A stretch of DNA of 64,000 nucleotides from Schmidtea nova. Its lineage: Eukaryota. Positions 19,558-39,457 of this stretch are shown one piece after another; the stretch's first letter is position 1, and each line of letters begins with the position of its first letter. The DNA lies in the NCBI GenBank assembly GCA_044892505.1, contig CM097882.1, positions 562,030,001-562,094,000 of the forward strand, read 5' to 3'. The position numbers were made by a program, and so were the translations under genes. The notes beneath the pieces were generated by a model, which saw only the letters and a list, made by a program, of their open reading frames with translations, did no database searches and was not told the DNA's origin.

Positions 19558-22500
19558 TTAGGTATAGGGGTATTCCAAGGGAAAAAATAGGGAGCACAAT
19601 GTTTTGCGGCGGGTTCGGCTCCCTAAGGAACCGGAAAAGATGCTGCTATGGACATAGTTCAAGATGATGTACGACTCAAAGGGATTTAGCAAATAATTTA
19701 TTTCTATCTCGTCTGTTATTCCTACATAATATACCCATACTCTGCACGTACAAGTTGAGCATATGTCCATTTTTTCTAATAACAGCACTTTATTGACCGC
19801 ATATGGCGCATTTATTTTCGTTTCATTAATGCTTGTCATGATGCTTAGGATTGTAATTATAAATAAAACTTTATTCATATATCCCAATGGGGTTGGATTC
19901 TTTTGAAACTTTTGTCGAATTTTTGTTTCCTCGTTAATTTTCTTTTCTTTTGAGCGTAATTGATATTCAAAATTCAGGTACTTTTTTACTTCTATTGGCA
20001 TGAACAATGATTGTTTCTGCTCTTTTATTATTAATCGGACGTAATTTTAAATTTGTTGCTGTTGCATCGCAGACCGTATACGGACCTTTAAATGGTCTTT
20101 GTAGTTTAGTTGACAGTCCTTTTACTGGCTCTGGTTTATTTAGGTATACTAGATCGCCAATTTTCATTCCGTGCTCATGCGCTATTTTGTCGTAACTTTC
20201 TTTGTATTGCTTCTGTCGATATTTTATCTTTAATCCTGCTTGAGTCCAAGCGGATTGTAAACGTTCTTGCAGAGCAACTTTATAATTTGGAATCTCTAAA
20301 TATTGAGAAGTTGGTGATTGAAACTCAAAATCGATCGGCATGTTATTTCGTCTTAGGTACATAAGATAAAAGGGCGTTTCTCCCGTACTCTCATTTACTG
20401 AATTTCGATAGGCATATATGCATGGTCTAATAAACAGATCCCGGTCTTTTTGCTTTCGATTCACATAGGATGAGATCATATTAATTAATGTACCATTATA
20501 CCTTTCCACTAAACCATCTGTTTGTGGATGATATGGTGATATGCTTAATTTATATATACCAAATAATTTTGTAATAGATTTAAATAGATCACTCTGAAAG
20601 TTTGTCACTTGATCTGTTAGCAATTTTTTGGAACGCCATATCTAAATATGATTTCTTCAACAAATATTTGTGCAACAGTTTCTGCCTTTTGGTTTGGCAT
20701 AGTAAACGCTTCTGGCCATTTGGTTAAATAATCACAGAATACCAAAATATATTTATTTTCATTCGTTGTCTCGAGTAAAGGCCCGATGATATCCATTGCT
20801 GAAAATTCCATTGGCGCTGCTGGTATTGGCATTGGTTTTAGAGGAACCTTTATTTTCTTTCCAGTATTTCTTCGAGTCAGGCATATTTTACAAGTATTGC
20901 ACCATTGCTTTACATCTTGCTCCATTGTGTTCCAGAAATATTTTAGTTTTAGTTGCGACAGCGTTTTTCTTGCCGACAAATGTCTTCCCAATGCTCCGTC
21001 ATGGTACTGCAATAATAACGTGTTTCGATGTTTTTTTGGAACCACTATTAACAGTTCATCATTTTTAATATATTTTAATATACCTTTGTGAATAATATAT
21101 TTATGTTTTTCCTCGATTAATTGTTTTAATTCATTATCCTTTTTCATTATTACTGTATGGTTTATTATTTGTTTCAGCTCCTCATCCATTTCTTGATCTC
21201 TCTGTAGCTCTGACATATTATTTGCTGCTTTAACTACTGCGAATACAGTATCTTTTAAGTTTATTTCTTCCTGGCTATTATTGATTTTTTCATTTGGAAT
21301 TCTAGACAAGGTATCGGCATTAGCATTTGATTTTCCTGTTCGATATTTGATTTCAAAGTTATATTCTTGCAAGACTAACGATCACCTAATCAATTTGCTT
21401 GCTGCATCTCGATGTTTCATCAACCATTGTAACGGATTATGGTCTGTATAGACAATGAATTTCCGACCTACCAAGTACTGTCGAAATGTTTTTATGCCAT
21501 ATACTAGGGCAAGAGTTTCCTTTTCGATTGTTGAATAGTTTTTCTCATGTGGTTTCATTGATCGACTAGCATATGCGATTACATGATCTTTTTCTCCTTC
21601 AACTTTTTGTCCTAATACCACTCCCAGCGCAAAATCGTTTGCGCCCGTCATTAACATAAATGTCTTTGTGAAATCAGGACATCGTAATATTGGATTCATC
21701 ATTAACTTTTGTTTGAGTATTTCGAAAACATCCTGCGGAGCTTTGTCCCACACGAATTTTGTGGTTTTCTTTAATAGCATCGTTAATGGTTGAGCAACAT
21801 GTGCAAAGTTTCTAATAAATTTTCTGTAATAGCTTGCTAACCCGAGAAATTGTCTAATATCATCAACATTTTTTGGAGTTGGATAATATTTAATTTTCTT
21901 AACATTTTCTGGATTTGGTTGTAAACCTTTTCGTGAAATGATATGTCCAATATACACTACCTCTGATTTTCCCCATTCACATTTTGATGGTTTGATTTTG
22001 AGATTTGCTTCTCTGAGCCGTTTAAATACTGTTTCCACATCTCTCATGTGCTCTTCGAAATTACCTGAGAAGATTATAATATTATCTATATACACCAAGG
22101 CTTGTGGAATATCTCGCAGCATAAAATTCATTCTTCTTTGAAATGTCGCTGGTGCACCTGTTAAACCAAGTGGTAACACATTAAATTCATACAAACCTTT
22201 TCCATCTGAAAACGCTATTTTCCCTTTATCTGTCTCTTTAACTTTGAATTGATTGTAGCCTTTGTTTAAATCAATAACAGTAAAATATTGAGCTTCTCCC
22301 ATTTTGTCAAACATTTACTGAGGAACCGGAATTGGATACGTATCCTTTCTTGTTACTTGATTCAGTTTTCGATAGTCAATACAGAATCTCAGTTCACCGT
22401 CTTTCTTTTTGACTACAACAATAGAGGAAGAAAATGGTGAAAAACTGTCTCTAATAATATGGAATTCTTTCATAGCCTTTATTTGTCTATCGCTTTCGTC

Positions 22501-24467
22501 TTGATGCGCATACGGAATTCTGTATGGCCGTAATTTAATTGGAGTTTAATCAATTAATGGAATTTCATGTTCAATTATATGAGTTACTCCCAAATCATAC
22601 TCATGTTTCGCAAAAATATCTTGATATTTTCTCAACAATTTTGTAAATTTTTGTATTTGCTCTTGCGTCAACTCTGCACTGTCAACTTGGGGTTCTTTGT
22701 ATATTTTAATATTTTTTGGTAATCTTTTATTATCGATTTTTAGAATTCTTGTTAGCTTTCCCGATTTCATTTTTGGTTTTAATGACACTTCTTTGTCGTT
22801 ATTGTTAGTGATGCGAACAGGAATTAATTGATGTTGAACTTTCACTACTTCGTCGTACATTAGAGTATCATATTTGGCAATTAAATTCTCACTTGGTTGA
22901 AATATAAATTCATCGTCTGGAACTCCCATTGTATTCACGTAACAAATGACTTCACTCTGAGGTGGTACTCTTAACGTTTGATTTAGAAATACATCTTTCG
23001 TTTCATGAATAGCTTTTCCCATTTTTCCTACAATTAGATTTCCGGTTTTCAGATAAAGAGAGACTCCTTCCAATTGCTATAACACATCCATCCCTACCAA
23101 ACACATTACTGGGCTATCTTTCATTATTAGCATCATGAACAATTTCTTTATTTCCAATATTAAACTTTACTTTGATCTGTCTAATGATATTTAATTTGTT
23201 TTTCGTCATTGATCGTACAACTTCTTCTGTGCTTTTCATTCGTGCTCCTTCCCCTGAATTTAATAATTTATTTGATAATATTGTATTGCTTGAGCTTGAA
23301 TCTATTAATGTTTCGACCCTATGTTTATTCACTTGTATCCATATTCTTGACTGTCTTCCTTTATTTCCAATTGTCATTAACGCATAATTTCCTGGAAATC
23401 CAAACTTGTTTCTCCTTTCAATTTTCGCACTGGTTGGTGCAATTTGCTCATTTCTCAATTCAATGTTTTCAACTGGTCTCATTTCTTTTAACTTTTCTAC
23501 TGGATATATTGGTGCTGTTGGTAGAAAAGTTTTTGGAATCCATAATCGACTGAACGTGTCTGTTCCACTTGCTTGTGGTATCGATTGCAGTAAATTTAAA
23601 GATTTAGATTTTTCTCGTATATCATTTATTTTAATTTTACTGTTTTTATAATAATATATAGGAGGCACTTTTACTTTCCCTCTATTCCCACTTTCGCTGC
23701 CCAAACTCGTATTAATGTCTTTTCCGTTTTTATTTAATCGTGACTTGACTTTTCCCATTTCTTTATATTGATGCTTTGTAATTACAAATTTTGCCAGAAA
23801 TGGAATACATCCGATAATCAGTTTCCAAGACCATCCCGAAATAACATATAGCTGATGAGTAGTTAATATTTGAAATATTATCACTTTAATCACCACGAAG
23901 ATAACATAAATTCCAATTAATCCTGCACATACTTGTCCCAAAAACATGAATTTTCCCCATATTTTTTTCATCGTATTGTACGTTGCTTTTTTATAATGAT
24001 CTGGTGTCAATTAATAGTCATAATTTACTTTGCTTTCACCACTTGGTAATATAGTATCGATCATTTCAGTAATTACTCGTTCTTTCTTGGATGGGAATAG
24101 TAGATTTCTTCGGGCTTCTTCAACATTTTCTTGAGAATACAATCCAGTTTGCGGTAATTTATCCAGTGATGTAAAATTTATTAAATATTCAAGTTTTGTT
24201 AATTCTAGTTTTTCTGGATTTCTCACTCCTTTATGATCTGGTAATGATATCCACGAATCTGATGTTAGTCGATATAATGGTGCGAACAATCGCTTACAAT
24301 TGCTAATTTTCACTTCCCCTGTTTGAAACCTGTTTGAAAAAGGGCCACATATCGAAAGATTGTAGGAGTAGGGATAATTCCACAGGGGAAAAATCATGTA
24401 CCAAATGCGGGAGAAACAATCATGTGGCGGCAAACTGCAGATTTTCGGACTTGAGTTGTGAGAAATT
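19558..24467 (-). mobile_element. Element D internal region: gB-like env C-terminus, PR, dUTPase-like spacer, RT, RH, IN, signal-peptide domain (decayed)
   Basis: WISLPD and TM segment KIWGKFMFLGQVCAGLIGIYVIF; protease LIDSSSS; RT IDLNKGYNQ and YIDN; RH ETLALVYGIKTFRQYLVGRKFIVYTDHNPL; IN HHCC (YHDGALGRH...CNTCKIC), PYHPQTDGLVER and GPY; then EYQLRS plus hydrophobic VLFIITILSIM. Confidence 0.92.
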
Positions 24468-24802
24468 TTTATATCGAATTTAAAAGTTTTTAATTTAAAT
24501 AAATTAATCTTAAAAATATAATATTCTTTTATTTTTATACAAAAAAATATTTTTTTTAAGAATATATTATAAATATTTTCATATTTATAAACAACAGAAT
24601 GATTGAAAACGAAATCCATGATCCCCAATTGAGCATTTTCAATTGGGGATCATGGATTTCGTTTTCAATCATTCTGTTGTTTATAAATATGAAAATATTT
24701 ATAATATATTCTTAAAAAAAATATTTTTTGTATAAAAATAAAAGAATATTATATTTTTAAGATTAATTTATTTAAATTAAAAACTTTTAAATTCGATATA
24801 AA
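24468..24802. repeat. Near-perfect inverted repeat (165/164 bp arms, 6 nt loop) at the truncation point of element D
   Basis: 24468-24632 is the reverse complement of 24639-24802 except for a one-base homopolymer difference; loop gcattt. Confidence 0.95.
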
Positions 24803-25489
24803 TTTTTTGACTATAATAAATTTTAAAATATATATTTTATTTTAAAAATTAATACTAATTTGTTCGAATAAATCGATTTATGTGATTTATATTTCGATGT
24901 AAGATTGGGTAGCACCTGATGAAGAGAATTAAGTTCTCGAAATATATTGTGCAAAATATATATTTGGATTCTCGTTTGTTGTTAATTTCTAGTTAATTCG
25001 ATTAATCGTTTTTTTTTGTAGCTTGTATTTATTTGTAACAAGAAAATTAAAAATTGCGTATATGGAAGGCAATTGTTTTCCTGCACCTGCACCCAAAAGT
25101 ATTAGGAGTCATTTCTATTTTCCGCGAATTTTATTATTTCTATTTTCCGCGAATTTTATTTAAAGTAGGAAATAGAAATTTATCACAGTAGGCTAGGCAT
25201 AGTAAAAATAAAAGTTCTTTAGTTATTTTGTCATTACATTGCTATTAGCATTTAGTTTTCTTTTAATAAACATTTAAAAGTGGTTGATATAAAAGTGAAT
25301 TATTTTTCGGTATATTAATACTTAAATTTTTAAAAAATATAAAATTATCTAAATAATTGTGCTCGAGAAAAACCTCTAAAAACAACACCAATTTTATCAA
25401 TAATCTCTTATTTTTCAAAACAGGTATACCTTTTACAAAATATAATATATAAAATATTTATATAATAAAAATTAAATTTAGATTAATCT

Positions 25490-27483
25490 ATGGCTGAGAA
25501 GGAAAAAGAAAGCGATTGGATTCAATCCAAAGAAAAGAGAAGTGAAATTTGGACTCATCTATTAATTAACAGCAAAGACAATAATATTTTAAAGTGCAAA
25601 CACTGTGACACTACATTTCGGTTGCATAAAACAACGACGTCATACAGGTATCATATGCAACACAAACATAATTTGTGTAAAGTGGTTGCTTCAACTTCAG
25701 CAGCAAGTCAAAATAATGACGCATCTAAAGTTACTTCGTTTTTTACCAAAAAATCTGCATCATCCCCAGGATACGTACTTGCTAAATTAACTGCATTAGA
25801 TCGCATACCGTTTGCTACTCTGGCAAATAGCGAAGAAATCAAAAATGGATGGAAAGCCCAAGGTTTAAGTTTTCCTGTAACAGAAAAGGGTATCAAGGCT
25901 ATGGTGGTTGATTACGCAGATACGATTCAACAAGCTCTGAAAAACAAACTTAAATTGAAAATCGAAGCTTGGGAACGATTTTCTTTGTCTTTAGATGAGT
26001 GGACTTCAAAACGCAATCGTCGATATATGTGTCTAAATATTCACACCAAAGATAAAGATGTTTTTGGGCTTGGCATGATAAGAATAAAAGAAACCATGCC
26101 AGCAGCCAAAGCAGTTGAAATTGTAAAAAAGAAATTAAGCGAATATGACATTATTTTGAAAAAGCACATAGTGGCATTTGTGACAGATGGCGCCTCTGTA
26201 ATGAAAAAGATGGGTCGTTTGATGTGTATTTACCATCAAGTTTGCCACAGCCACGGAATACATTTGGCAGTTGTAGACGTCCTCTACAAAAAAAATTCAA
26301 CTACGTTTGAAGAAATAGACGAGGAAATCCAATTGGGAAATGAAAACGCTGGAGATCAATCTGATTACGATTCAAATGAAAGTGAAACAGAAAGTGAACT
26401 TCAATTTTGGATGGAAGAAAATCCTTCAGAACACATAAACTGCGCTCTAGCTGATTAATTTTCAACAGTTATTCAAAAAGTAAGAAAAATAGGTCGAATG
26501 TTTCGTAAATCTCCTGTTAAAAATGATGTGCTGCAAAAAGCCTGTAAAAATAAAATTGGTAAGGAATTAAATTTGATAATTGATACCTCCACAAGATGGA
26601 ATTCGCTGCTGGCTATGCTTAAACGGTTCTTGGAAATGAAAGACGTTATAAAAACAGTTTTACATGATTTGTCTGTTGTTCAAATTTTTCCTTCCAATTA
26701 TGAACTAAATGTTATTTCGGATATTGTCGAATCATTGGAAGTAATTGAAGTAAGCTCCTTGGCCCTGGCCAGGAAAGATTGCAACTTAATACAAGCAACA
26801 AAAATCTTTGAATTCTTATTGACAAAATAAAAGAGCAATCCCACTCAAGTGTGCTGGCACAAAAGTTTTGCACGTCAATGACTACCAGAATTAATGAGAG
26901 AAGGAACCCAAATCTTGAAGGATTACTGGTGTATTTGGATGACCCAATAAAATATTTAGAAAGTGTATCGGATGAAAACTTTGTTTTTAAAAAACCAACC
27001 AAAAATGAGCTCGCTAATACCGCTAAAGATTTTGCTAATATTTACTTATACCGCTTACTTATACCGCGGTTACTTATACCGCTTACAGAAAATCCATCCG
27101 AAGCTGATTCTGATTACGAAGATGAAAACGATGTTATAGAAATTGTATCTGAAAAAAGAGCAAAATATTCAAAAGCAGATGAGTTACAGGAATTCTTAAC
27201 TAAAGAACTTGCTAAAACCAATTCAACAGCTGCATTCAACTATAGTTTACAAGATATAAAAAGGGAAATGATGGTTTACGAACACAGTAAAATAAAAACA
27301 GATTTACTATCAAAAATTTATAATGGATTGTTGAGTGTGCGGCCATCATCAGTGGAGGCGGAAAGAAGCTTTAGTGCTGCTGGTTTGTTCGTTACAAAGC
27401 TCCGGACATCCTTGAACGACAATACGTTGGATAAACTCTGCTTCCTACGTGCACATTTATTAAATGAAAAAAATACAAACTAA
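25490..27483 (+). mobile_element. hAT transposase pseudogene (one stop, one frameshift); right TIR at 27701-27710
   Basis: BED finger (W..L...CKHC...YRYHMQHKH), SLSLDEWTS, VTDGASVM, CHSHGIHLAV, TRWNS and the dimerisation motif PSSVEAERSFSAAG. Subterminal aatcgatt repeats end in ccatgcccta. Left TIR not found. Confidence 0.92.
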
Positions 27484-27710
27484 ATATTTTATAATGTATT
27501 ATTTTATTTTTTACCTATATATGTACTGAATTTAATTTGAAGTGAAATAAACTTTTATTTTTGTTAAAATGCAGAAGTTATTTACTTAAAATACATATAA
27601 AAAAATTAATAAATTAATAAATTAATCGATTAATCGATTAATCGACTCAAAAACTGAACAATTAATCGTTAATCATTTTTCTCTAAAATCGATTAATCAA
27701 CCATGCCCTA

Positions 27711-28150
27711 GTTGTCAGGTTGTTGACGACGAATATTTGGTAGATGTAGGATGTTTTCCACAAGAGGAAACTATTGTACTAATACTATTGGTCGAGCTTC
27801 CAGAAGACCAATAGGCAACGCTGAGATTGCCAGATAATGCTGAGTTGGAGAATGACGAAATCTCTCTCGAGCAACAACAAGCAGGTTCTGATACCCGTCA
27901 GCAGACAGGAGAAACCGTAGGTTTAGATGCTGAACTAGACAAATATTTACGGGAATTCGACAACACTGAGGATGAGTTGGTTGAGATAATGCCACCTATG
28001 AAAGATGAAAATATAAGATTAAACCGAAATGAAACGAACATCGGAGCTAGTACTTCGCAGGGAATTGGGCCACCAAGAGATAGGATGAGCCCGAGATTTG
28101 TTGAAAATAGGAGAAAGAAGGAGAGAAGGGGGAGACCAAGAAAGAGTTAA
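27711..28150 (+). pseudogene. ORF X: acidic, then basic segment ending in an AT-hook-like RGRPRK; 5' truncated
   Basis: One reading frame from 27713 with an internal TAG; its TAA (28148-28150) is immediately followed by the in-frame ATG of the Bcl-2-like ORF. Confidence 0.5.
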
Positions 28151-28651
28151 ATGAACCCGCCTCCAAGAGAACTCCTAAGGCCCGTTACTATACAAAGCGT
28201 AAACAGGCAGGTCTTGGCAGGGATAGCCAGCCAAATTGATAAAAGCGCAAGATATTTTAGTAGTAAAACAGAAACGTGGAGGAGATTGAACCAAATATTA
28301 CGACTGATGAAGCTTGAATGGCAAATCACGAAAGAAAAAGTTATAAATGTCGAGAGAATTACCGACAAGATTAAAAAGGCAATGAAAAAGATTCCGGGAG
28401 GCACCACGGAACAAGAACTGTTTGAAGTAGCAGAACAATTTATGCAAGAAGGGTTGACAAAAGGGAAAATGATAACAATTTTAGCCCTAATGTTTAAAAA
28501 CACCTTAATAATACTTAAGGATGATCCGTCAGGAATTCAATTAGCCTTAAACAGGCTGACTAATATTATAGAAGTGAATTTTGAAACATGGATGACTGAA
28601 CACAAGTTTTGGGAGACAAATGAAATGAAACGAAAGGAAAATATGAGATAA
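28151..28651 (+). CDS. Bcl-2-family-like protein (166 aa)
   Basis: LFEVAEQFMQEG-LTKGKMITILALMFKNTLIILKDD-PSGIQLALNRLTNIIEVNFETWMTEHKFW aligns to human BAX 92-158 (FFRVAADMFSDGNFNWGRVVALFYF...P130...W151IQDQGGW158) with two single-residue gaps. G103, G108, P130, W151 and W158 are conserved; BH3-like RRLNQILRLMKLE lies upstream. Confidence 0.7.
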   Translation: MNPPPRELLRPVTIQSVNRQVLAGIASQIDKSARYFSSKTETWRRLNQILRLMKLEWQITKEKVINVERITDKIKKAMKKIPGGTTEQELFEVAEQFMQEGLTKGKMITILALMFKNTLIILKDDPSGIQLALNRLTNIIEVNFETWMTEHKFWETNEMKRKENMR

Positions 28652-28662
28652 ACGAGGATTTA

Positions 28663-30783
28663 TTGACAGAACATATCCCAAGTAATCCACGGGGAATGGG
28701 TGGATTCACTAACTGGATGATGTTATTATTAATGATGGGAATATTGCGACAGGAAAATTCCTTAACAGCATATGATTGCAGCGAACCGATACTAGCAAGA
28801 ATTTATTCATTAGTAGACACAGTGGAATGCAAGGAAGCGTATCCAGATAAAGTTGCTAAACGGGATGATGCTGAATATCATGTTTATCAACAAACAGAGT
28901 TTTATAGGACCAGGGTGAGGGAATGTCGAATACAGAGAGCGACATTTGAGTATTACTGTGGAACAAACAGTTATACAGCATTTCTGGGAGCTAAGCTTAT
29001 CCCGGTACCATTGATAATCCCACCAGAGGATTGCATAAATGCTTTTCTATCGAAAAAATGTTAAAATAGATGATGAAGTGACAATCACATCAGAGGAAGG
29101 AAAGAAGCTGGGTATAACGATTACCAGGGGAGGACCGATATCAGATGATGGTTCTTGCACCGGGAGAAAGAAATTAAGAGGTTCTAATATTGTAAGTTAT
29201 GTTGTAACTGTCGAGGATTACACAGTAGAATTGATAGAATATGAAGGAACCTTTGAAGTAGCTACGGGGAAGATGATGTCCCATCCTGAATGTAATGTGA
29301 AGTTTGGGTATTGTAAAACCAGTACAGCGGTACTGACGTATCAATCAATGAGAGAATTTTGCGATTTGGGATACCTGAAAAAAGTAGTATTTTCAAGGCT
29401 TGATGGGAAAAGTTTTACATCGCAAGATTCACACCAAAGCGGGTGGGGAGATAAGATCACCCACAAAATGAAAAAAGAGAAAGTGCCTGAGAAAAGCATA
29501 GCAGTAGTATTAGTCGCAAAAGATCCTACAGATGCAATACGATTAGTTAGAAAGAAGCAGATAACAAAATGTGGTGTGCCAATATTCGAGACAAACTATA
29601 AGGGAATATTTTTAGCATACAAATATGTTCCGGCAGCGGAAACATTACATCTGTCAGATATAAAGATAGCGAAATATATCAATAATAAAATTGACTTTTT
29701 GTATCATGATTTACAGCAGCAATTACTAGACGTTTATCAGGAAGTGATCTTGAACGATTGCCGTTTAAACAGGGAAATAATACGGAATAGATTAGCAACA
29801 TCTATCTCAAACCCTGATTTAGTAATGCCAATGTTAACCGAGGAGGGAACGTTTGGTAGAATTTCGGGAGAAGCAATTTATAGTTATCAATGTAAAGAGG
29901 TGGAGGTAAAAATTACCAAATACGACCAATGCACTTAAGAGCTCCCAGTAAAATATAAAGGAAAATTAAGATTCATGATACCAGTATCACATCAGTTGAT
30001 GGGAGAAGATGCAACTCCATTGAAGACAATTTGTAATCCAGCAATGTCACCATTATACAAAATTAACAATATATGGATTTCTTTACCAGATAGAAAACCA
30101 CCTTCTAAACCAGTAGAAGTGTTGCAGGCCACTAAACTAGAAACTAAAATGGAATTTCGACCATTGAATGAGATGTCAAAGAGGGAGTATATACTCAGGA
30201 AGATATTGAAGAAGCTAGGATAGCAATAGTGTTTCCTTAAATCAGAGATCGAGGAGTGACAGAGATAATAACTAGAATTTATCAATCATACGACGGAAAA
30301 CCGTATAACAATTTATTTTTTGGACCAGAAAACTACAAGCAAGCCGCATCAAATGTGATTCGGAGAATCTGGGGAAGATTCACAAGCTTTGGAATTTTCG
30401 TAACAGGATGTTCAGGCATATACGCAATAGTGATGATATTGAAAATAATCATATCGCAATTATTTTCCACATATAGTATCTTCAAGATTGGAGGATGGTC
30501 TTGGAAGTTACTATTGGGAATGTTCCCAGTTTGTGCAGATTTCGCAGCATTTCATCATCATAATAAAGAGATTAAGAAAATGAAAAGACAAAATGTGACG
30601 AAGCACGAAATAATAAAGTATGAATATAGTCATCGAGACGATGACAATTCTGACGAGGGAGGTAACCTAGAGGGCGACAAGACTTCATATAACACCTCAA
30701 CAAAACCAGACAACAAAAAACCGAATTTTCAAAATTTTGAAATTAGTACTTTTCAACAGTACCCTGTTAAAACAAAAAGATGA
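28663..30783 (+). pseudogene. Chuvirus/Monjiviricetes-type class III (gB-like) fusion glycoprotein, several lesions
   Basis: Signal peptide WMMLLLMMGIL, then TAYDC, YSLVDTVEC, Q..F..TRVREC...YYCG, GSCTG, YINNKIDF, DCRLNRE, GEAIYSYQCKEV, C.ELPVKY, WISLP and a C-terminal TM region: the characteristic cysteine and motif series of this glycoprotein family. Confidence 0.88.
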
Positions 30784-33700
30784 AAACAACAGGAATGGCC
30801 TGTGAAATATGTGTCACCATATGAAACTAGGAGAAAGAAGTGGAAGAGGAGATGTTGAGGCGTTTTGATTTTAGGACAAACGCAGGTATGTCAGAACCTC
30901 CTACACATTCAAAGTACCACATGAAATTCGAGACAATGCCACCTTTGGGCACATCGGTATTAGAGACAGTACCAAAATATCCATTTAGCACGTTGGAGCG
31001 GCTAAAGGAAAATTATCAAGATGAAATAAAATCGGAAGATGACAGAGATAGCGAGAATCAACAGAAATTTAGAGACAATATTTGAGGAATCTCAACAGTG
31101 TTTATGGCAAATTCAAGTAAAAATACGCACAAGCCTACAATTAAACTAAAGGTTAATAGACAACGGTTCATGCCATTATCGATTCAGGATCAGATTTACA
31201 CTGATCGAAGCAAATTTATTAAATGAAAAAGAATTACTAGCAATAGTACCGACATTAACTATTGCATCAGGAGCAAATTGACAGCCAATCAATGTTATTG
31301 GGACATTAGATTGTGAACTAAGGTTGTGCGACCAGAAATTTAGATACGATATCAAGGTCACCAGACACTGTATGGCAGAATGTATCGTGGGAATGGATAT
31401 ACTGAAAAAGTTAAAAGACATTATATTTGATTGTGCAACAGGCGAATTGGTAAAAATGACGGGTAGAAAACGGAAAACATATAATGTTGATGTAGTCTTT
31501 CTGGATAGAACAGTAAGAATACCACCAAGAACTGAAACAGTTTGTTTTGTGGCAACACACTAAGAGGTTGAGGAAGATGTTATTTTCGAACCAAGTGAGC
31601 AGTTCATAAATAGATATAAAACACCTATGGTGCAAAATTTGGCAACAGAACGGGGAGGAAGAATCCCAATTAGATTAACGAATCTCGCGAATAAGTCATT
31701 GAGGTTGTACCCAGAGACGAGAGTAGGTAAAGTGATACAACTTTCTATTCCAAGGAAAGTGTCTGAATCAATATTATCGGTGAAAGAGGAGGAACAGGAT
31801 CCTGATATTGAGTATTACGATGTACCTAGTTGTGATAGTAAAACTTTAACTAGAAAAGAGAATATTAGAGTTAATCAATTGTTACGAAAATATGATCAAG
31901 TTTTTGCAAAACACGAATATGACTTAGGGCAAGTTAATATCCTAGAACATGAGATTAAATTAACAGAAAGTAAACCAATAAAGATACGCCCGTATAGAAT
32001 CCCTCAAAGTATACAAAGGTCCGTAGATAAACAAATTAAATTAATGCAAAAGTATAATATAATTAGACCAAGTAAATCTCCATATTCTTCGCCCTTGGTG
32101 GTTGTAGCTAAGAGATATGGTTCAGTTAGGTTATGTAATGACTATAGGAAATTAAATGAACAAACTGTAAGTGATAATCACCCACTACCTTTGTTAGATT
32201 ATATATACGATAAAATGAAAAATTCGAAACTGTTTACTGTGATGGATGCACAGAAAGGATTCTATCAAATAAAAATGATCGAAGACTCAATTCCTATGAC
32301 AGGATTTTCAACTAGTAGTGATCATTTTGAAAATTTAGTAATGCCGTTTGGACTAAAAGGAGCACCTCCAACTTTTCAGAGGGCTATGAATATTATGCCG
32401 ATGGATGCACATCATGCAATGATATATATTGACGACATTATTATCTTCTCGGAAGATTTAGATAAGCACTTAGAACATCTTGAGGATATATTTAAACGGC
32501 TAATTATGGCAAATCTGAAAGTAAAACCAAGTAAATGCAAGTGGGCAGGATCGGAAGTGATTTACGTAGGCCATGTAATATCACACGATTGCGTAAGATC
32601 AGATCCGGCTAACACGGATAAAGTAAAGAATCTCCCACAACCAGTGAATGTGAAACAAATCAAAGGATTTTTAGGGTTGACGGGATATTATAGGAAATTT
32701 ATTCGGAATTTCTCTGCGATCGATTTTCCTTTAACTACGCTAGAAAAGAAAGGAGTAAAAATTCTTATGGGGAGAGGATCAGCAGCAAGCGTTTGATAAG
32801 TTGAAAGATGCGTTATGCAAACCACCAATTTTACGGTTTCCAGATTTTAAAAGACAATTCATGGTGATGACCGATGCATGCACAAGAGGCATAGGCGCAG
32901 TTTTGGGACAGAAAAACGAAATTGGTGATGAATACGCAGTAGCATACGCAAGTCGTGGGTTAAAGCCACACGAAAAAAGTTACACAGTGATAGAATTAGA
33001 AGCACTGGCGTTAGTATTTGCAGTGGAGAAATTTAGTCATTACCCGTGGGGCAGAAAGGTAATTTTCTAAACCGATCATAGACGATTGCAATGGCTTTTG
33101 AAACATAGAGATGAGGCGTCGAAATTGGTAAGATGGGCATTGAGATTGCAGCCCTATAATATCGAGATCGTTTATCGAAAAGGTAAAGCCAACGGCAATG
33201 CAGATGCATTATCGCTGATTGAACAAGAACCGGAAGCGGAAGATGTAAAAGAAGGAAGACTGGAATGAACAATCTTTATGTTAACGAGAGAAGCAAATAC
33301 GTTGACTGATTTGGTAGAGGCGCAGAAGAGTGATGACGAGATCAACATGATCAGACAAGCCATCGAAGCAAAAGCCATACCAAGCGAATTTCAAAAATAT
33401 TGGTAGAAACATAAAGATAAATTTATCTTGGAAGAAGGGTTAATTAAATATGTGGAGACGAGAGATAATGTAATATTAGTGCCAAAGAAGTATAGAGAGT
33501 CGTTGCTATTACAATATCACGATGGAGCATTGGGAGGACATCTCTCAGCGAGACATACATTGTCTAGATTGAAAACAAAATACTTTTGGCCATATATGAA
33601 AGATGATGTAAAGAAGTGGTGTCAAACGTGTAAAGTATGTGTAACAAGGAGGAATACAGGTAAGAAACCTCATGTACCTCTAAAGCCAATGTCAGTACCA

Positions 33701-34682
33701 TCCTCGCCTATGGAGATGACGGCTATGGATGTACTTGGGCCGTTTAAGGAATCAACGATGGGAAACAAGTTTATATTAGTCTTTTGCGACTACTTAACAA
33801 AGTGACCGGAAGCATTTCCGATTCGAAACCATAAAGCAGATACAATTGCCAGAATATTTGTTGAGCAGATTGTATTTAGGTATGGAGTTCCATCAAAATT
33901 GCTTACCGACAGAAGAAAGGATTTCATGAGCAATTTGTTAAAAAGCATAAATTATTTTGGTATATTAAAGTTAAACACATCTCGTATCACCCACAAACGG
34001 ATGGGTTGGTAGAGGTTCAATGGAACCTTGGCAAATATGTTGTCATCATATGTGAACTCAGGACAGATGGATTGGGATGTGCATATACCGTCATGTTTGT
34101 TCGCATATAGGAATGCAATTCATTCAGTCACAGGAGAAACGACTTTTATCTAATGTACCTAAGGCATAGCAAGATGCCAGTAGATCTCATATTTTATCCG
34201 AAAGCTTCGCAAAACTGTGACGAAGGGAATTATTTATTTGAAATGAGAGAAAGAATGCAAGAAGCTTGGGAAAAGCAGGCTTAAAAATTCGTTATAACCA
34301 GGAGACAATGAAAGAATACCATGACCGTAAAGCAAAAGAGCATGGATTCTTAGTGGGAGATTATGTCATGTTAGAGGGACATTATAACAAAAAAGATTTG
34401 TAACCGAAACTTATGAGGAATTACAAAGGACCATATCAAATATTGAAGGCTACAGAGACAAATTTGATCTTGCAGTCGGTGGCAAACAAGAAAGCAGAAC
34501 CAATCATGGTTCACGCAAATAGATGCAAAAAGATAGCTCCACCGGAGAAAGAGAAACCGAAATCAGAAATAGACGAATTCGAAATAAATAAGCAATCGAA
34601 AAAGAAAACTTTGGAATCATATAAAAGTATCCTAAAGGGTCAACCAGAACGATACCCTTTACGATCTAGACAGATTCCTAAA
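30781..34682 (+). pseudogene. pol of element E (PR, dUTPase-like spacer, RT, RNase H, integrase), many stops/frameshifts
   Basis: AIIDSGSD at about 31172; RT SPYSSPLVVV, CNDYRKLN, YIDD; RH TDACTRGIGAVL; IN YHDGALGGH...CQTCKVC, MDVLGP, GPY. Confidence 0.92.
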
Positions 34683-35117
34683 ACGGTTACATTTTTAACA
34701 ATAATCAGCTGCGTCATGATGGTAGGTCAAGCATTCGAGAAGTTTGTACCAGAGTCGAGTCAACATCCAGATATATGATATCGACGAACTGATAGGGCTT
34801 TTAGATTCTATTTAAAGAGTATAAAATGGCAAAGATACGATTTATATCTGACAACACCTGAGAAAGGAATATCTTTCCATTTAAACAAATGGGATAGAGT
34901 GAAAGAGATAGGAGGACTAATGCCAAACACCGGATATCTCTTGGAAATCAAGACCTTTTTTGCGGATCCAGACGTTTCTGCAGACGGAGGAAATTGTGAT
35001 GACAAAGCGGGATGGATTTTGAAAACAGCAGTATTTACGGAAAAAGTAGAGATTTCTTATCATGGGCAGACGGTAAAATTCGCGCATGAGTATTGGATGA
35101 AAAATAATAGAATCACG

Positions 35118-35198
<81 letters not shown>

Positions 35199-35688
35199 AA
35201 ATATGAAGAGTCAAAAGATTGGTACTCAAACAATCATATCAAGGTCGAAAATGGACAATACGACCAAAAGTGGTTACGAAAGCCAATATAACATACTTGG
35301 AGTTTTCAGAGAAAATTGGTTGGTATACAGTACATCATGAATTGGTAGATCTGGTACCACATGCAATGGAGAAACTAACTAGCATGCAAGGGAGAGCTAG
35401 ATTAGTAAATATTCCTGGGTGTAAAGGAATAAGCCAAATGGATTTGAGGAACCTAAGAAAGGTAGTGAGTAAAATGCAACCCCTTGTAAATAAACTTCTA
35501 ACCAATTGTACCTGTCAAAGAGAAACTAGGGGATGTTACAAGATAAAATGCCAAATTGGCTATTTGTAGTTATAATAAGGGGAGTAACCAGTATGGTTTT
35601 AGTATTAGTAATAGTAACCCTTTGGATGTTTCAATTAACTTTAAGGGACAAACGTTATTGGGAAAATTATTACGAGACTGAGGTATAG
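34683..35688 (+). pseudogene. Second membrane glycoprotein (GP2) fused downstream of integrase
   Basis: RYPLRSR followed in frame by signal-like TVTFLTIISCVMMVGQA (34683-34733), a ~280 aa Cys-containing domain interrupted by (TA)n at about 35121-35193, and TM WLFVVIIRGVTSMVLVLVIVTLWMF with a short tail ending TAG at 35686-35688. Confidence 0.6.
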
Positions 35689-35890
35689 GGGGGAAGTCTC
35701 ACCAGAGTATAGGTAGTGTAAATATATAATTATATTTTTGATATTAGTATTTATAATTATGTAGATAATGGTGTTGGCTCAAAGGACCAATTGTAAAATC
35801 AGACATCAGCGTATGTCAACTTATTTTACCCTGGGAGGGTCTATGAAAAAGTGATAAAATCTTTTAATTATTTTTATTTTTTAGAAAACC

Positions 35891-36382
35891 ATGAATTCTA
35901 CCGAAGAATCAAGAGTTCCGACAAAATCAAACAGACAACACCCTATGATTACGTACAATTCCCAAAATAGAAGTAATATAGAAGTATACAGCACATACAA
36001 AGAGGAGTATGTTTACAGGTTCATAGGAACCACGGTGGCGACGAAGATGAATTACTGGTATTATCCAAGGAGGGTGGATATCCCAAATTATTATAAATTC
36101 CCAGGCGGAACTCGAAGGCAAATGATGGTGACGGTTGTGAACAACCAAGGTAGAATTAAAGTAGCAGAGTTATGCAGAGAATATGGCTCATGCCCTAAGT
36201 TAGAAAATATATGGCTTCATGCGATCAACAGACAGATTACTGTATTTATGGCTGGAATGGAACTACCAGTGGAATTAGATAAGCATTGCACATTGGAGGT
36301 GTATCATGCTGATGGTAGAGAACGTAACATAATGTTGCAAGCATCCGCAGTAAATACTATAACCTTACCCAATTGTGAGTAG
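35891..36382 (+). CDS. Cargo ORF (163 aa), possibly a very degenerate DEDDh exonuclease-fold copy
   Basis: MMVTVVNNQGRI, WLHAINRQ and LEVYHA echo the DEDDh motifs CSLVN..G, HGIT and LVGHN; weak similarity. Confidence 0.35.
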   Translation: MNSTEESRVPTKSNRQHPMITYNSQNRSNIEVYSTYKEEYVYRFIGTTVATKMNYWYYPRRVDIPNYYKFPGGTRRQMMVTVVNNQGRIKVAELCREYGSCPKLENIWLHAINRQITVFMAGMELPVELDKHCTLEVYHADGRERNIMLQASAVNTITLPNCE

Positions 36383-37913
36383 AAATGAGCCGACATGGAT
36401 TTATAATGTTAATGAAGAGGATTTACAACAAAGCAGATCATTCGTAGGGAGAAATATGTCGAAAGTGGAAGAAGATGAGGCCACAGTTTTTGTGTCGGCC
36501 GGATTTGCAAAATCGAGAATTGATATGAAGGAAACGCTTATCCAGATAGCGATCTTGGACATAAGAGGGAATAATTTATTGAGTGCAGTAGTGACCCCCA
36601 AAGATCCAGTTAAACACTACCAGACGCACCAATATAAGTTGAAGGAACAGGAAATCCGAGGAAACCTCGATGAGGAGGATTGTCACCATTTGATACGGAA
36701 AATCTGTGACAAGAAAATTGTGGTAGGAATTCTAGTAAAGGATTTACTCAAGGTAGCCAATCTAGCAGTGCAGAGATTATTAGGCATCCGTGATTTATCC
36801 ACGAATAAATTGTTAGAATCCCGAGGAGTCCCTAAGATTCATGGCTATTATAAATTAGGATTCCTGACGAAGACATTTTTGCGTACAGTGCCGGGAGAAC
36901 CAAGGAATTTGGTGTTTACAAATGAGGCATTAGCAATTCGTGCTATATATTTACACATCAGAAATGAATGGTTAGACCATATCAGTGTACCTCAGGAAGA
37001 ATTTAGGTCAAAAACTACGGCAGAGATAGTTGAACAAGAAGTTTTACAGACGCGGAAGTTACCCAAACCGCCATCTACATCGGAACAACCCCATACAAAA
37101 AGAAGGGAGAAGACACCAGAATATTTCCCACCACCCCCAATCATATCGATAGGCGAAGATGAATATGAGACATGCATCAGTGAAGCAGAACCACAACAAC
37201 CATTTACCAGCGCTGCCTATCAGCAAAAGGAAGAATCAGAAATTACGCCCGGTAAAAACAAACAGGAAACAGGCAATGTGGCAAGAATTCTTAAAAAGAT
37301 AATACCGGTAAAAAAAGATAAATCCAAGATGAAGCTGAAGAAGGTTGCTAAACAACCAATAGATCGAATAAAAGAATCGCCACAAAAAGAAAGAGAGGAA
37401 AAGATTACTACTAAGAAAGTTTTTGCCGAAATTGATGATGATATAATGGAAGTCGAGTTTCAACCGCCAATTAAGGAGTTGCAAGAAGCAATAAGGGTTA
37501 AGTCTGAACCCGAAGTTCGGAAAAAGATGTTGAAAATCGCAAAAGAGAATATTATAAAGAAACCAGTATCTGTAGATGTAGATGGATTTGAACCAATGTG
37601 GTATAAACGCCCCGATCCTCTATGGAAACCTAGAGCCAAAGATTACGACTGCCAACCGGTTACAAGAATGGTTATAAACAACAATGAAAAATATGATGTC
37701 TATGACGTGGACGGAATACCGTATGTAGTATCATCGCTTATATTAACAAGCGCGTTAGATGACAAAGCAATGGCAGTAAGCTTTGAGTTAGATACCCTGA
37801 AGAAGAGAAAGCAAGTATTGAAAAGGCAGTACGCAATCGCTAACGGTTATAGCACAACAGAAGTACATCTGTACAAGATTCCCGAGCCAGATCCCGATGA
37901 CCTGGATGCCTAA
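36375..37913 (+). CDS. ISG20/REXO4-like DEDDh exonuclease-fold protein with degenerate catalytic residues, Pro/charged linker and unknown C-terminal domain (512 codons, uninterrupted)
   Basis: IAILDIRGNNLLSAVVTPKDPVKHYQT, KKIVVG, IRDLSTNKLL, KLGFLTKTFL and EALAIRAIY parallel ISG20 CSLVNVHGAVLYDKFIRPEGEITDYRT, GKLVVG, IYDTSTDRLL, SLRVLSERLL and DARATMELY. The ExoI DxE is replaced by S-A. Confidence 0.7.
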   Translation: MSRNEPTWIYNVNEEDLQQSRSFVGRNMSKVEEDEATVFVSAGFAKSRIDMKETLIQIAILDIRGNNLLSAVVTPKDPVKHYQTHQYKLKEQEIRGNLDEEDCHHLIRKICDKKIVVGILVKDLLKVANLAVQRLLGIRDLSTNKLLESRGVPKIHGYYKLGFLTKTFLRTVPGEPRNLVFTNEALAIRAIYLHIRNEWLDHISVPQEEFRSKTTAEIVEQEVLQTRKLPKPPSTSEQPHTKRREKTPEYFPPPPIISIGEDEYETCISEAEPQQPFTSAAYQQKEESEITPGKNKQETGNVARILKKIIPVKKDKSKMKLKKVAKQPIDRIKESPQKEREEKITTKKVFAEIDDDIMEVEFQPPIKELQEAIRVKSEPEVRKKMLKIAKENIIKKPVSVDVDGFEPMWYKRPDPLWKPRAKDYDCQPVTRMVINNNEKYDVYDVDGIPYVVSSLILTSALDDKAMAVSFELDTLKKRKQVLKRQYAIANGYSTTEVHLYKIPEPDPDDLDA

Positions 37914-38195
37914 TCAATGCAAGTTGCTTATCAACAACGTCGCAAAGCAAATAGTGTATATACAGAAGACTTGATTTTTTTGTGACTCATATGACCCTGA
38001 ATTTGACTTTTAACAGATCTTTTGACATTTACTTTAATCATGTGATGTATAAATATAAAAAGTGACATCAGATTTGTGATAGTTCTTTTTACGCTGTGTA
38101 TATTTTAAATTTTTATGTTTTATGTTAATGCTGTTTGTGAAAAGCCTGGTTGTTTAATCTTGTTTTCGAGACGAAAATCTTTTAGGGGTAAGACT

Positions 38196-39155
38196 TGTTA
38201 GGATCAGGCCCTTGGCCTTAATGTATTTAGCTTTTAAAACAAATTATATTTAAAAATAGTAATAGTAAATTACTAAAAATAGTTAATAAAAAAATAAAAA
38301 TTACCAAAAATAATTAATCTAGAAAAAACAATTACCAAAAATAGAATCGAGTTATCTTTTGTAATTGCTAGTAAATTAAATAGTAATTTCTAGTTATTAA
38401 ATATAGTTTAGGTAATTTAATTCACATATAAATAGGACAGAGTTTTAGTTGAGAGGGACGATAATACTTTAGACAACGACAGAATTGACGAAAAGTTTTA
38501 ATTATAACAGAATAGTGGACGATAATAAGAAGAAATTAGATTTACAAGAAATCAATCATTTGGAGAAAGGAAAATCGAATTTATAAAGAAGCATAGATTG
38601 CCATTATAAATTATTACTGGAGCTGGAAAATTGTCGGTAAGAAGAAAATTCAATTATTTCGAGAAATTTTGCATTGAGTTGACGACAGGGAGATTTATAT
38701 AAATACTTCGATCACATTTTCTGGAGATATATTTTTCAGCTTTGGTAAGGAAAACGGTGAAGTATTAATTGTTTTGCGAAATTATCATTAGTTTAAATTT
38801 TGAAATTAGTGAAGGATAAATTTATCCTTTTAGTCTTAACATATTTTTTTAAATTAACAAGCGGGTACAAAGTAAAGTAGCTTACTTTAGTATCCTCTGG
38901 GTGCCTCAAAATCATACCCTCTTGCTTGCCCATCTTTGTTAAAACTCTTAGCGATCGTTGTGCTACACAGGAGCCAACGATTTCTTGCAGGCTGACACAA
39001 ACAGCAAGGATTAATTCAATCCATAATCTTGATTGTTCTTTTTGTACAAACATTTGATTGATAAAATACCATTGTAAATTGTTTAATAAAAGTATTTAAA
39101 GAGCAAAGTTTGTTTTCGTTTACAAATTACCTACTAAATAATATACGCAACCACA

Positions 39156-39161
<6 letters not shown>
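38196..39161 (+). mobile_element. 3' LTR of element E (~965 bp)
   Basis: TTCGAGACGAA...tttaggggtaagact (PPT), then TGTTAGG; AATAAA at about 39086; ends ...cactaa(t)a running into a (TA)n tract. Confidence 0.75.
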
Positions 39162-39218
<57 letters not shown>

Positions 39219-39457
39219 TTTATATACATTTATTTTTTTTTTTCATTGGTCAACTTGTGTTAAGATCAGTAACCCCCATCTTTTTGATCTTAACATTTAT
39301 ACAATACTTTGCTCGCCTTTTTGATAACTTCATCTCATTTTTCCATATTTAAATAATCGTATGTCCCAATTTCTAACAAAATATAACTCGTAATTGTCAC
39401 TTTATTTCGCCGGATATATCACAATTACTTTTTCAATAATCTCCTCACCAACGTTTG

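Follow-up and report, generated by a model that had tools for sequence, protein, structure and literature searches.

When a retroelement appears to carry a regulator of cell death, it must be asked whether the domain in question really has the fold of that regulator, and what it could do inside a virus-like polyprotein. This is raised by a locus of Schmidtea nova, in the 64,000-nucleotide stretch of DNA analysed here (the window). An open frame of 166 codons (28151-28648, plus strand) is found there, and the Env frame begins at 28624. The original prediction, made from the letters of the sequence, was that of a Bcl-2-like domain borne on a retrotransposon and possibly sharing its tail anchor with the Env signal peptide. 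Positions 28151-28621 encode a divergent Bcl-2-fold domain, and it is almost certain that this fold is part of a polyprotein. The preferred reading, which is reasonably probable as a whole, is that the domain of the Gag-Env-Pol polyprotein is anchored at the ER by the Env signal and acts as a survival factor in the manner of viral Bcl-2 proteins.

The retroelement and its copies

The predicted location on an LTR element is correct, since the domain lies in a Gag-Env-Pol frame. A search of the element's own genome, covering the best 150 of 367 candidates, found at least 79 other copies with 82-88% identity across 161 residues or more; at least 33 of these sit in open frames of at least 3,500 codons. 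In intact copies, the domain is placed within one Gag-ubiquitin-like-Bcl-2-Env-Pol frame of about 3,550 amino acids, in a Gypsy LTR element of about 15 kb. Being part of a single polyprotein, it is synthesised one-to-one with Gag. One open copy encodes a Gag with three CCHC knuckles, two weak ubiquitin-like stretches, an AT-hook-like motif, the domain and Env, followed by protease (RVP), reverse transcriptase (RT), RNase H and integrase (rve). The first ubiquitin-like stretch of this copy matches ubiquitin at E 0.065; in a relative, P0016, ubiquitin is matched at E 0.0046. Within Pol, a protease comes first, then a dUTPase-like stretch (recognised only from its position and by eye), then RT, RNase H and integrase. 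This open copy has two identical LTRs of 1,064 bp and is 15.4 kb long; LTR-to-LTR lengths, taken from one copy each, are 15.4 kb in family 1, 15.0 kb in family 2 and 13.9 kb in family 4. The LTRs, the Gag, the gB-type Env between Gag and Pol, and the protease-RT-RNase H-integrase series are those of the flatworm GAG-ENV-POL Ty3/gypsy errantiviruses.

The window copy is dead: its 5' part is missing, and the rest aligns as 11 separate pieces that contain up to 16 stops (Table 1). Similarity to the retroelement begins at 27711, at the edge of a hAT transposon. The domain had been taken for an ORF of its own, which it is not, since the ATG at 28151 comes after a stop of the window copy and the other copies are open for more than 500 codons upstream. 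A single indel near 28620-28650 had also been proposed, and here the comparison agrees. The frame break is specific to the window copy, while the junction from the domain into Env is in frame in 28 of the 29 best-scoring copies among the 79; the 29th has a stop within the domain.

Table 1. Features of the element and of the adjoining transposon, by position in the window
Feature	Position	Strand	Basis or remark
hAT DNA transposon, abutting the element and separating it from its Gag part	25487..27710	+	zf-BED, DUF659, Dimer_Tnp_hAT
Gypsy LTR element copy, decayed and 5'-truncated, Gag-Env-Pol order	27711..39296	+	91.6% nucleotide identity to another copy over 27711-35130
Second ubiquitin-like domain, end (approximate, weak assignment)	27711..27810	+	UBX E 0.15 in the other copy
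AT-hook-like basic motif directly upstream of the domain	28124..28144	+	Sequence; family 4 has a weak AT_hook match at this position
Additional N-terminal helix, whose BH3-like string has no Asp	28184..28246	+	Helix 12-32, pLDDT about 50; outside the matched range 37-157
Bcl-2-fold core (residues 37-157): short alpha2-alpha4 connection, degenerate BH1, both BH2 Trp	28259..28621	+	pLDDT 82-96 over residues 41-157; Z 12.0, rmsd 3.0, 119 aligned; profile match 98%, residues 87-157
Frame break between domain and linker	28627..28636	+	Frame change between aligned pieces; 28 of 29 other copies open
Hydrophobic segment, likely the internal signal peptide of Env; from topology, it would also anchor the preceding part by its tail	28705..28749	+	
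Env, gB/chuvirus-type fusion glycoprotein, broken	28762..30625	+	PF24664 in four pieces, E 3e-12, 3e-22, 1.5e-6, 1e-11
Pol, broken (approximate limits)	31150..34550	+	RVT_1, RT_RNaseH, Integrase_H2C2; protease and rve from an open copy
3' LTR-like stretch of the window copy	38196-39296	+	

Several further features of the element and its surroundings were observed. The window copy matches another copy at 92% in its 5' part, but only at 67-82% in its 3' portion and LTR (35184-39296), a mismatch in identity which suggests that it may be a recombinant or belong to a second subfamily. The polyprotein runs about 400 residues beyond the integrase (window 34404-35570), with another hydrophobic signal-like stretch and no family match, and the tail beyond the integrase of the relative P0001 is similar. 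Between Pol and the 3' LTR, families 1 and 2 have a second ORF of about 700 amino acids (window 35885-37900; L079:315-2420) without a Pfam match. The minus strand of the window (19558-24310) carries another Env-Pol element, which belongs to the same broad clade (RT 54% identical) and is truncated within Env. Between it and the hAT transposon are a 147-bp piece of family-1 Gag and then a near-perfect palindrome of about 340 bp (24320-24807).

The Bcl-2 fold and its divergence

The window sequence alone gives no Bcl-2 match in Pfam, and none with phmmer against the PDB; neither it nor family 1 reaches the curated cut-off of PF00452. The signal comes from related elements. At least ten element families in the genome carry the module (the grouping being our own), with a median between-family identity of 17%. 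PF00452 is matched by the sister families 3 (E 0.007) and 2 (E 0.03), which are 37-38% identical to the window. It is matched more strongly, in the same position ahead of Env, by family 4 (E 9e-7) and family 5 (E 3e-7), copies of which pass the curated cut-off in a Pfam search of the genome. When the PDB was searched with a profile built from the window's three closest families, chosen without reference to Bcl-2, Bcl-2 proteins came first and made up 58 of the 60 top matches listed (best E 0.031). The joint family profile matches Bcl-xL at 9e-9. When compared with 1.84 billion proteins, it had 25 matches, namely 21 Pfam Bcl-2 proteins and four retroelement proteins that carry the module. Comparison with a profile of cellular Bcl-2 proteins gave a probability of 98%, limited to residues 87-157, the N-terminal half being unaligned by sequence. 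In a control, 1,000 shuffles reached at most 6.6 bits, and 15 of 20 cellular Bcl-2 proteins scored 11-24; the set is biased, because 14 of the 20 had previously been found with a related profile. A word-index search for the domain in longer proteins gave none among 456 candidates.

The domain was also modelled with AlphaFold2 from a 24-row alignment of element sequences, one of which (P0004) is of uncertain origin. Its pLDDT averages 80; residues 41-157 reach 82-96, those before them about 50. The model may have profited from the sister families in the alignment, whose Bcl-2 signal is clearer. In a structural scan of 48,161 chains, Bcl-2 folds fill ranks 1-32; the best has a Z of 12.0 (rmsd 3.0, 119 residues) and the first unrelated chain a Z of 5.6, to be read with the caution that values below about 13 can be common among helical bundles. 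Residues 37-157 of the model align end to end with Bcl-2 chains. Foldseek against the PDB and BFVD returned nothing at E <= 0.001, and the 44 PDB matches listed, all weaker than this, are all of the Bcl-2 family. The predicted Bcl-2 identity is thus upheld by the structural scan and by the profile probability over residues 87-157. Of the profile and structure searches that had been proposed as a check, PF00452 with the window sequence and Foldseek at this threshold came back empty, and the profile comparison and the full structural scan were positive. A Gag capsid domain, the identity that had been named as the competing one, is rejected on the scan and the position of Gag: there is no capsid among the 50 matches listed, and Gag is located about 1,000 residues upstream.

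The motifs by which the domain had been recognised are present, with one qualification. The BH1-like segment, in which NWGR was said to be altered to TKGK, is found at residues 103-106; the Gly and a basic residue are retained, the Asn and the Trp are gone, and NWGR itself is absent. Both BH2 tryptophans are in place (W147 and W154, with the normal spacing of 7), and the GG is replaced in families 1-3. The claim of BAX-like spacing is correct in part only. From BH1 to the first tryptophan there are 44 residues, and from the first to the second 7; the corresponding distances in four cellular Bcl-2 proteins are 45-46 and 7. However, the Asp of the helix at the alpha2 position precedes the BH1 Gly by 29 residues, as opposed to 39-43 in four cellular proteins (BAX not among them), and the alpha2-alpha4 stretch is 10-14 residues shorter than in the cellular proteins compared. 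The model has a single helix between alpha1 and alpha4 where Bcl-2 has two. Since the Asp is too near to BH1 and only one helix is available, the BH3-binding groove is likely to be remodelled, and the short connection and single helix may mean that it is closed.

The strongest BH3-like string, residues 22-30, is in a low-confidence helix outside the matched fold. This N-terminal helix has L-x-x-I-A (or -T/-S) in families 1-6, and in family 1 it shares five residues with the BH3 of Schmidtea mediterranea Bak-1, minus its Asp. Judging from sequence, it could be a BH3 mimic or pack into the groove; this is a post hoc observation, and chance is possible. The AT-hook-like motif ahead of it is present in families 1-4, in P0003 and in P0016.

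Across families, the core helices and BH2 tryptophans are retained and the BH1 surface residues vary, the BH1 Gly and basic pair being found in three of the ten (families 1-3). Loss of BH1 is weak evidence against BH3 binding, because the host Bcl-2 proteins are also degenerate: NWGR is present in two of seven aligned planarian loci, and the host Bak-1 is without it. One host Bcl-2 exon is 90% identical to S. mediterranea Bak-1. In family 1, the domain is under purifying selection, with a core pN/pS of 0.11 (378 non-independent pairs, from copies picked by score) or 0.13 when lower-scoring copies are used, close to the 0.09-0.11 of Env. In a tree of the domain, for which 23 of the 24 rows were used, the 23 element-borne rows form one group (support 81/83) with long branches. 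The phylogeny that had been proposed with the Bcl-2 genes unites the element-borne domains; with this level of support and such long branches, it points to no donor gene and does not prove that capture took place once.

The Env signal as a probable shared anchor

All ten elements examined have a hydrophobic segment with a 15-residue hydropathy of 1.8-2.9, and in each of them small residues come next, ahead of the conserved start of Env. The rule of signal-peptide cleavage was applied to these small residues, and the pattern is as expected for a cleaved signal peptide (the cleavage site being judged by eye). The segment begins 28-48 residues past BH2 across elements, at 30 in family 1 and 29-32 in families 1-3, whereas the anchors of four cellular Bcl-2 proteins begin at 20-29. 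P0001, a full-length relative with a whole Gag-Env-Pol frame, has the hydrophobic segment and no match to the domain profile. As the segment persists where the domain is lacking, it is primarily an Env signal. This bears on the predicted sharing of the anchor, of which the physical link is sound (in frame in 28 of 29 copies) and the emphasis changes, the segment serving Env first. From topology, tail-anchoring would be a by-product of the Env signal.

Because the domain precedes the segment in one chain, cleavage of the signal would leave a Gag-Ubl-Bcl-2 protein tail-anchored, with the domain in the cytosol. The segment would start the translocation of Env, signal peptidase would cut after it, the upstream part would remain on the cytosolic face of the ER, and Pol would return to the cytosol after the membrane segment of Env. 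In hepatitis C virus (HCV) core-E1, according to PMC5402940, the envelope signal peptide forms the end of a cytosolic domain, which remains anchored in the ER once signal peptidase has cut. The proteins are unrelated and the analogy is confined to topology. Anchoring via the Env signal is considered probable. Among the papers listed in literature searches, none states the anchor-sharing idea, which may yet be found in Grohme 2018, Lee 2026 or their supplements.

Possible roles and known relatives

Planarian stem cells are culled by apoptosis. In the preferred reading, the anchored domain would dampen host BAK/BOK-type killing via its remodelled groove and so favour survival of the particle-making cell. 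A block of apoptosis is plausible, and the domain is a putative survival factor of this kind, with chances put slightly below even. Several viral Bcl-2 proteins (canarypox CNP058, fowlpox FPV039, ASFV A179L, BHRF1, M11L, F1L) have Z scores of 6.5-10.6 to the model, and share with the domain a virus-like carrier, degenerate BH motifs and a C-terminal hydrophobic segment. These proteins are encoded by free-standing genes of large DNA viruses, and their BH3 binding has been shown; unlike them, the window domain comes from a polyprotein and is known here from sequence and model. The survival reading leads for two reasons. The IAP of the Burro1 element reportedly keeps stem cells from caspase-mediated death (PMC13465017, citing Lee 2026), and the model lies closer to cellular Bcl-2 proteins (Z 10-12) than to poxviral A52, N1 or B14 (Z 5-6). 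Against it, the short alpha2-alpha4 connection and single helix of the model may close the groove. The BH1 Gly and basic pair in three of ten families, at a median identity of 17%, and the whole frame and hydrophobic segment of P0001 without the domain, would also speak against it, as does the fact that an ER anchor differs from a mitochondrial one.

The domain might instead be a structural exaptation unconnected with cell death, in which the Bcl-2 fold and the Env signal form a matrix-like tether that keeps Gag close to Env at the ER for budding. The fixed place of the module at the Gag/Env border in ten families and in four outside proteins is consistent with this, as are the retention of core helices and BH2 tryptophans with variable BH1 surface residues, the shortened groove segment and the one-to-one synthesis with Gag. 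However, no more than the signal helix would be needed to tether Gag, and P0001 manages without the domain; the tether is held to be rather unlikely. In a more specific version, to which slightly less credence is given, an ancestral flatworm errantivirus captured a host Bcl-2 once and turned it into a matrix-like part with a closed groove, tethering Gag to the ER in ten families. If true, this would be a retroelement structural domain derived from an apoptosis regulator. The RT tree leaves P0001 unplaced relative to the Bcl-2-bearing families, and gives no order of gain or loss.

It is improbable that the domain is a non-apoptotic modulator of the host, similar to A52, B14 and N1, which are Bcl-2-fold blockers of innate signalling that act via other surfaces. 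This has a poxviral precedent (as described in PMC2494871 and PMC3240604), and the adjacent ubiquitin-like domains and fast divergence would fit a host-interaction module, but the model is closer to cellular Bcl-2 proteins than to these three. A helical spacer arisen by chance or a helical domain of the Gag capsid, which would agree with the missing Pfam and phmmer matches of the window sequence and with the unaligned N-terminal half, is very improbable in view of the family profiles, PF00452 in the sister families, the protein search, the profile comparison, the structural scan, the shuffle control (with its biased set) and the position of Gag far upstream. What probability remains as to function falls to a dispensable domain or another role.

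Burro/GYPSM1 are giant planarian Gypsy elements (PMC6431247, citing Grohme 2018 and Jurka 2007). In the description given there, Burro ORF1 has Gag, Ubi2/SUMO-like and BCL2-like domains and an Env in frame between Gag and Pol, with a dUTPase-like domain, and these domains are proposed to meddle with host apoptosis (PMC6431247). The novelty implied by the original prediction is not borne out, since planarian Burro elements have already been described with a BCL2-like motif in frame ahead of env. Going by that description, the window family has in common with Burro/GYPSM1 one huge ORF, a CCHC Gag, a ubiquitin-like domain, the BCL2-like motif, an in-frame Env (mononegavirus-like in Burro), protease, a dUTPase-like stretch, RT, RNase H and integrase. 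It differs in size: about 15 kb with a 3,550-aa ORF and 1.06-kb LTRs, versus more than 30 kb and 4,873-5,140 aa. Under a strict definition of Burro, a BCL2-like domain and Ubl before Env are present (the Ubl being weak, E 0.065 and 0.15), but the size and the BIR, MATH or ankyrin domains are not; no Pfam match to MATH/TRAF, BIR, ankyrin or Smc was obtained in the stretches scanned (ORF1 and ORF2 of families 1 and 2).

Closer in size are six S. mediterranea GAG-ENV-POL elements of 14.5-18 kb catalogued in PMC13524379. Smed_errantivirus_4 (14.9 kb), the nearest of the catalogued elements, resembles the window family in its GAG-ENV-POL order and HSV/gB-type Env, and of the six its Env ectodomain is the closest, as judged by eye without an alignment. 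The sequences clearly differ, which makes it a sister family. The main text of PMC13524379 contains 'bcl' nowhere. The existence of the module is thus already known, and what is added here is the confirmation at the level of the fold, the spread over ten families, the shortened groove and a testable topology. A second cell-death module besides the reported IAP of Burro1, this one with a true Bcl-2 fold, is regularly carried by at least ten of the smaller, recently active element families in one genome. These families form a natural series, from near-canonical to unrecognisable, in which BH3 binding can be weighed against a structural role.

Other genes with cell-death domains were encountered in the genome. 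At least 150 near-identical BIR-domain frames, mostly of 399 codons, are present (150 of 1,295 candidates scored), and are probably the IAP cargo of a Burro1-like element. Two 20-kb stretches downstream of BIR-bearing frames gave no match to the domain profile, and at L153 two BIR-domain frames lie in tandem. Short, partly broken copies of host Bcl-2-like sequence, of two related types, are found at L054, L056, L060, L068, L074 and L077, and are perhaps a small expansion.
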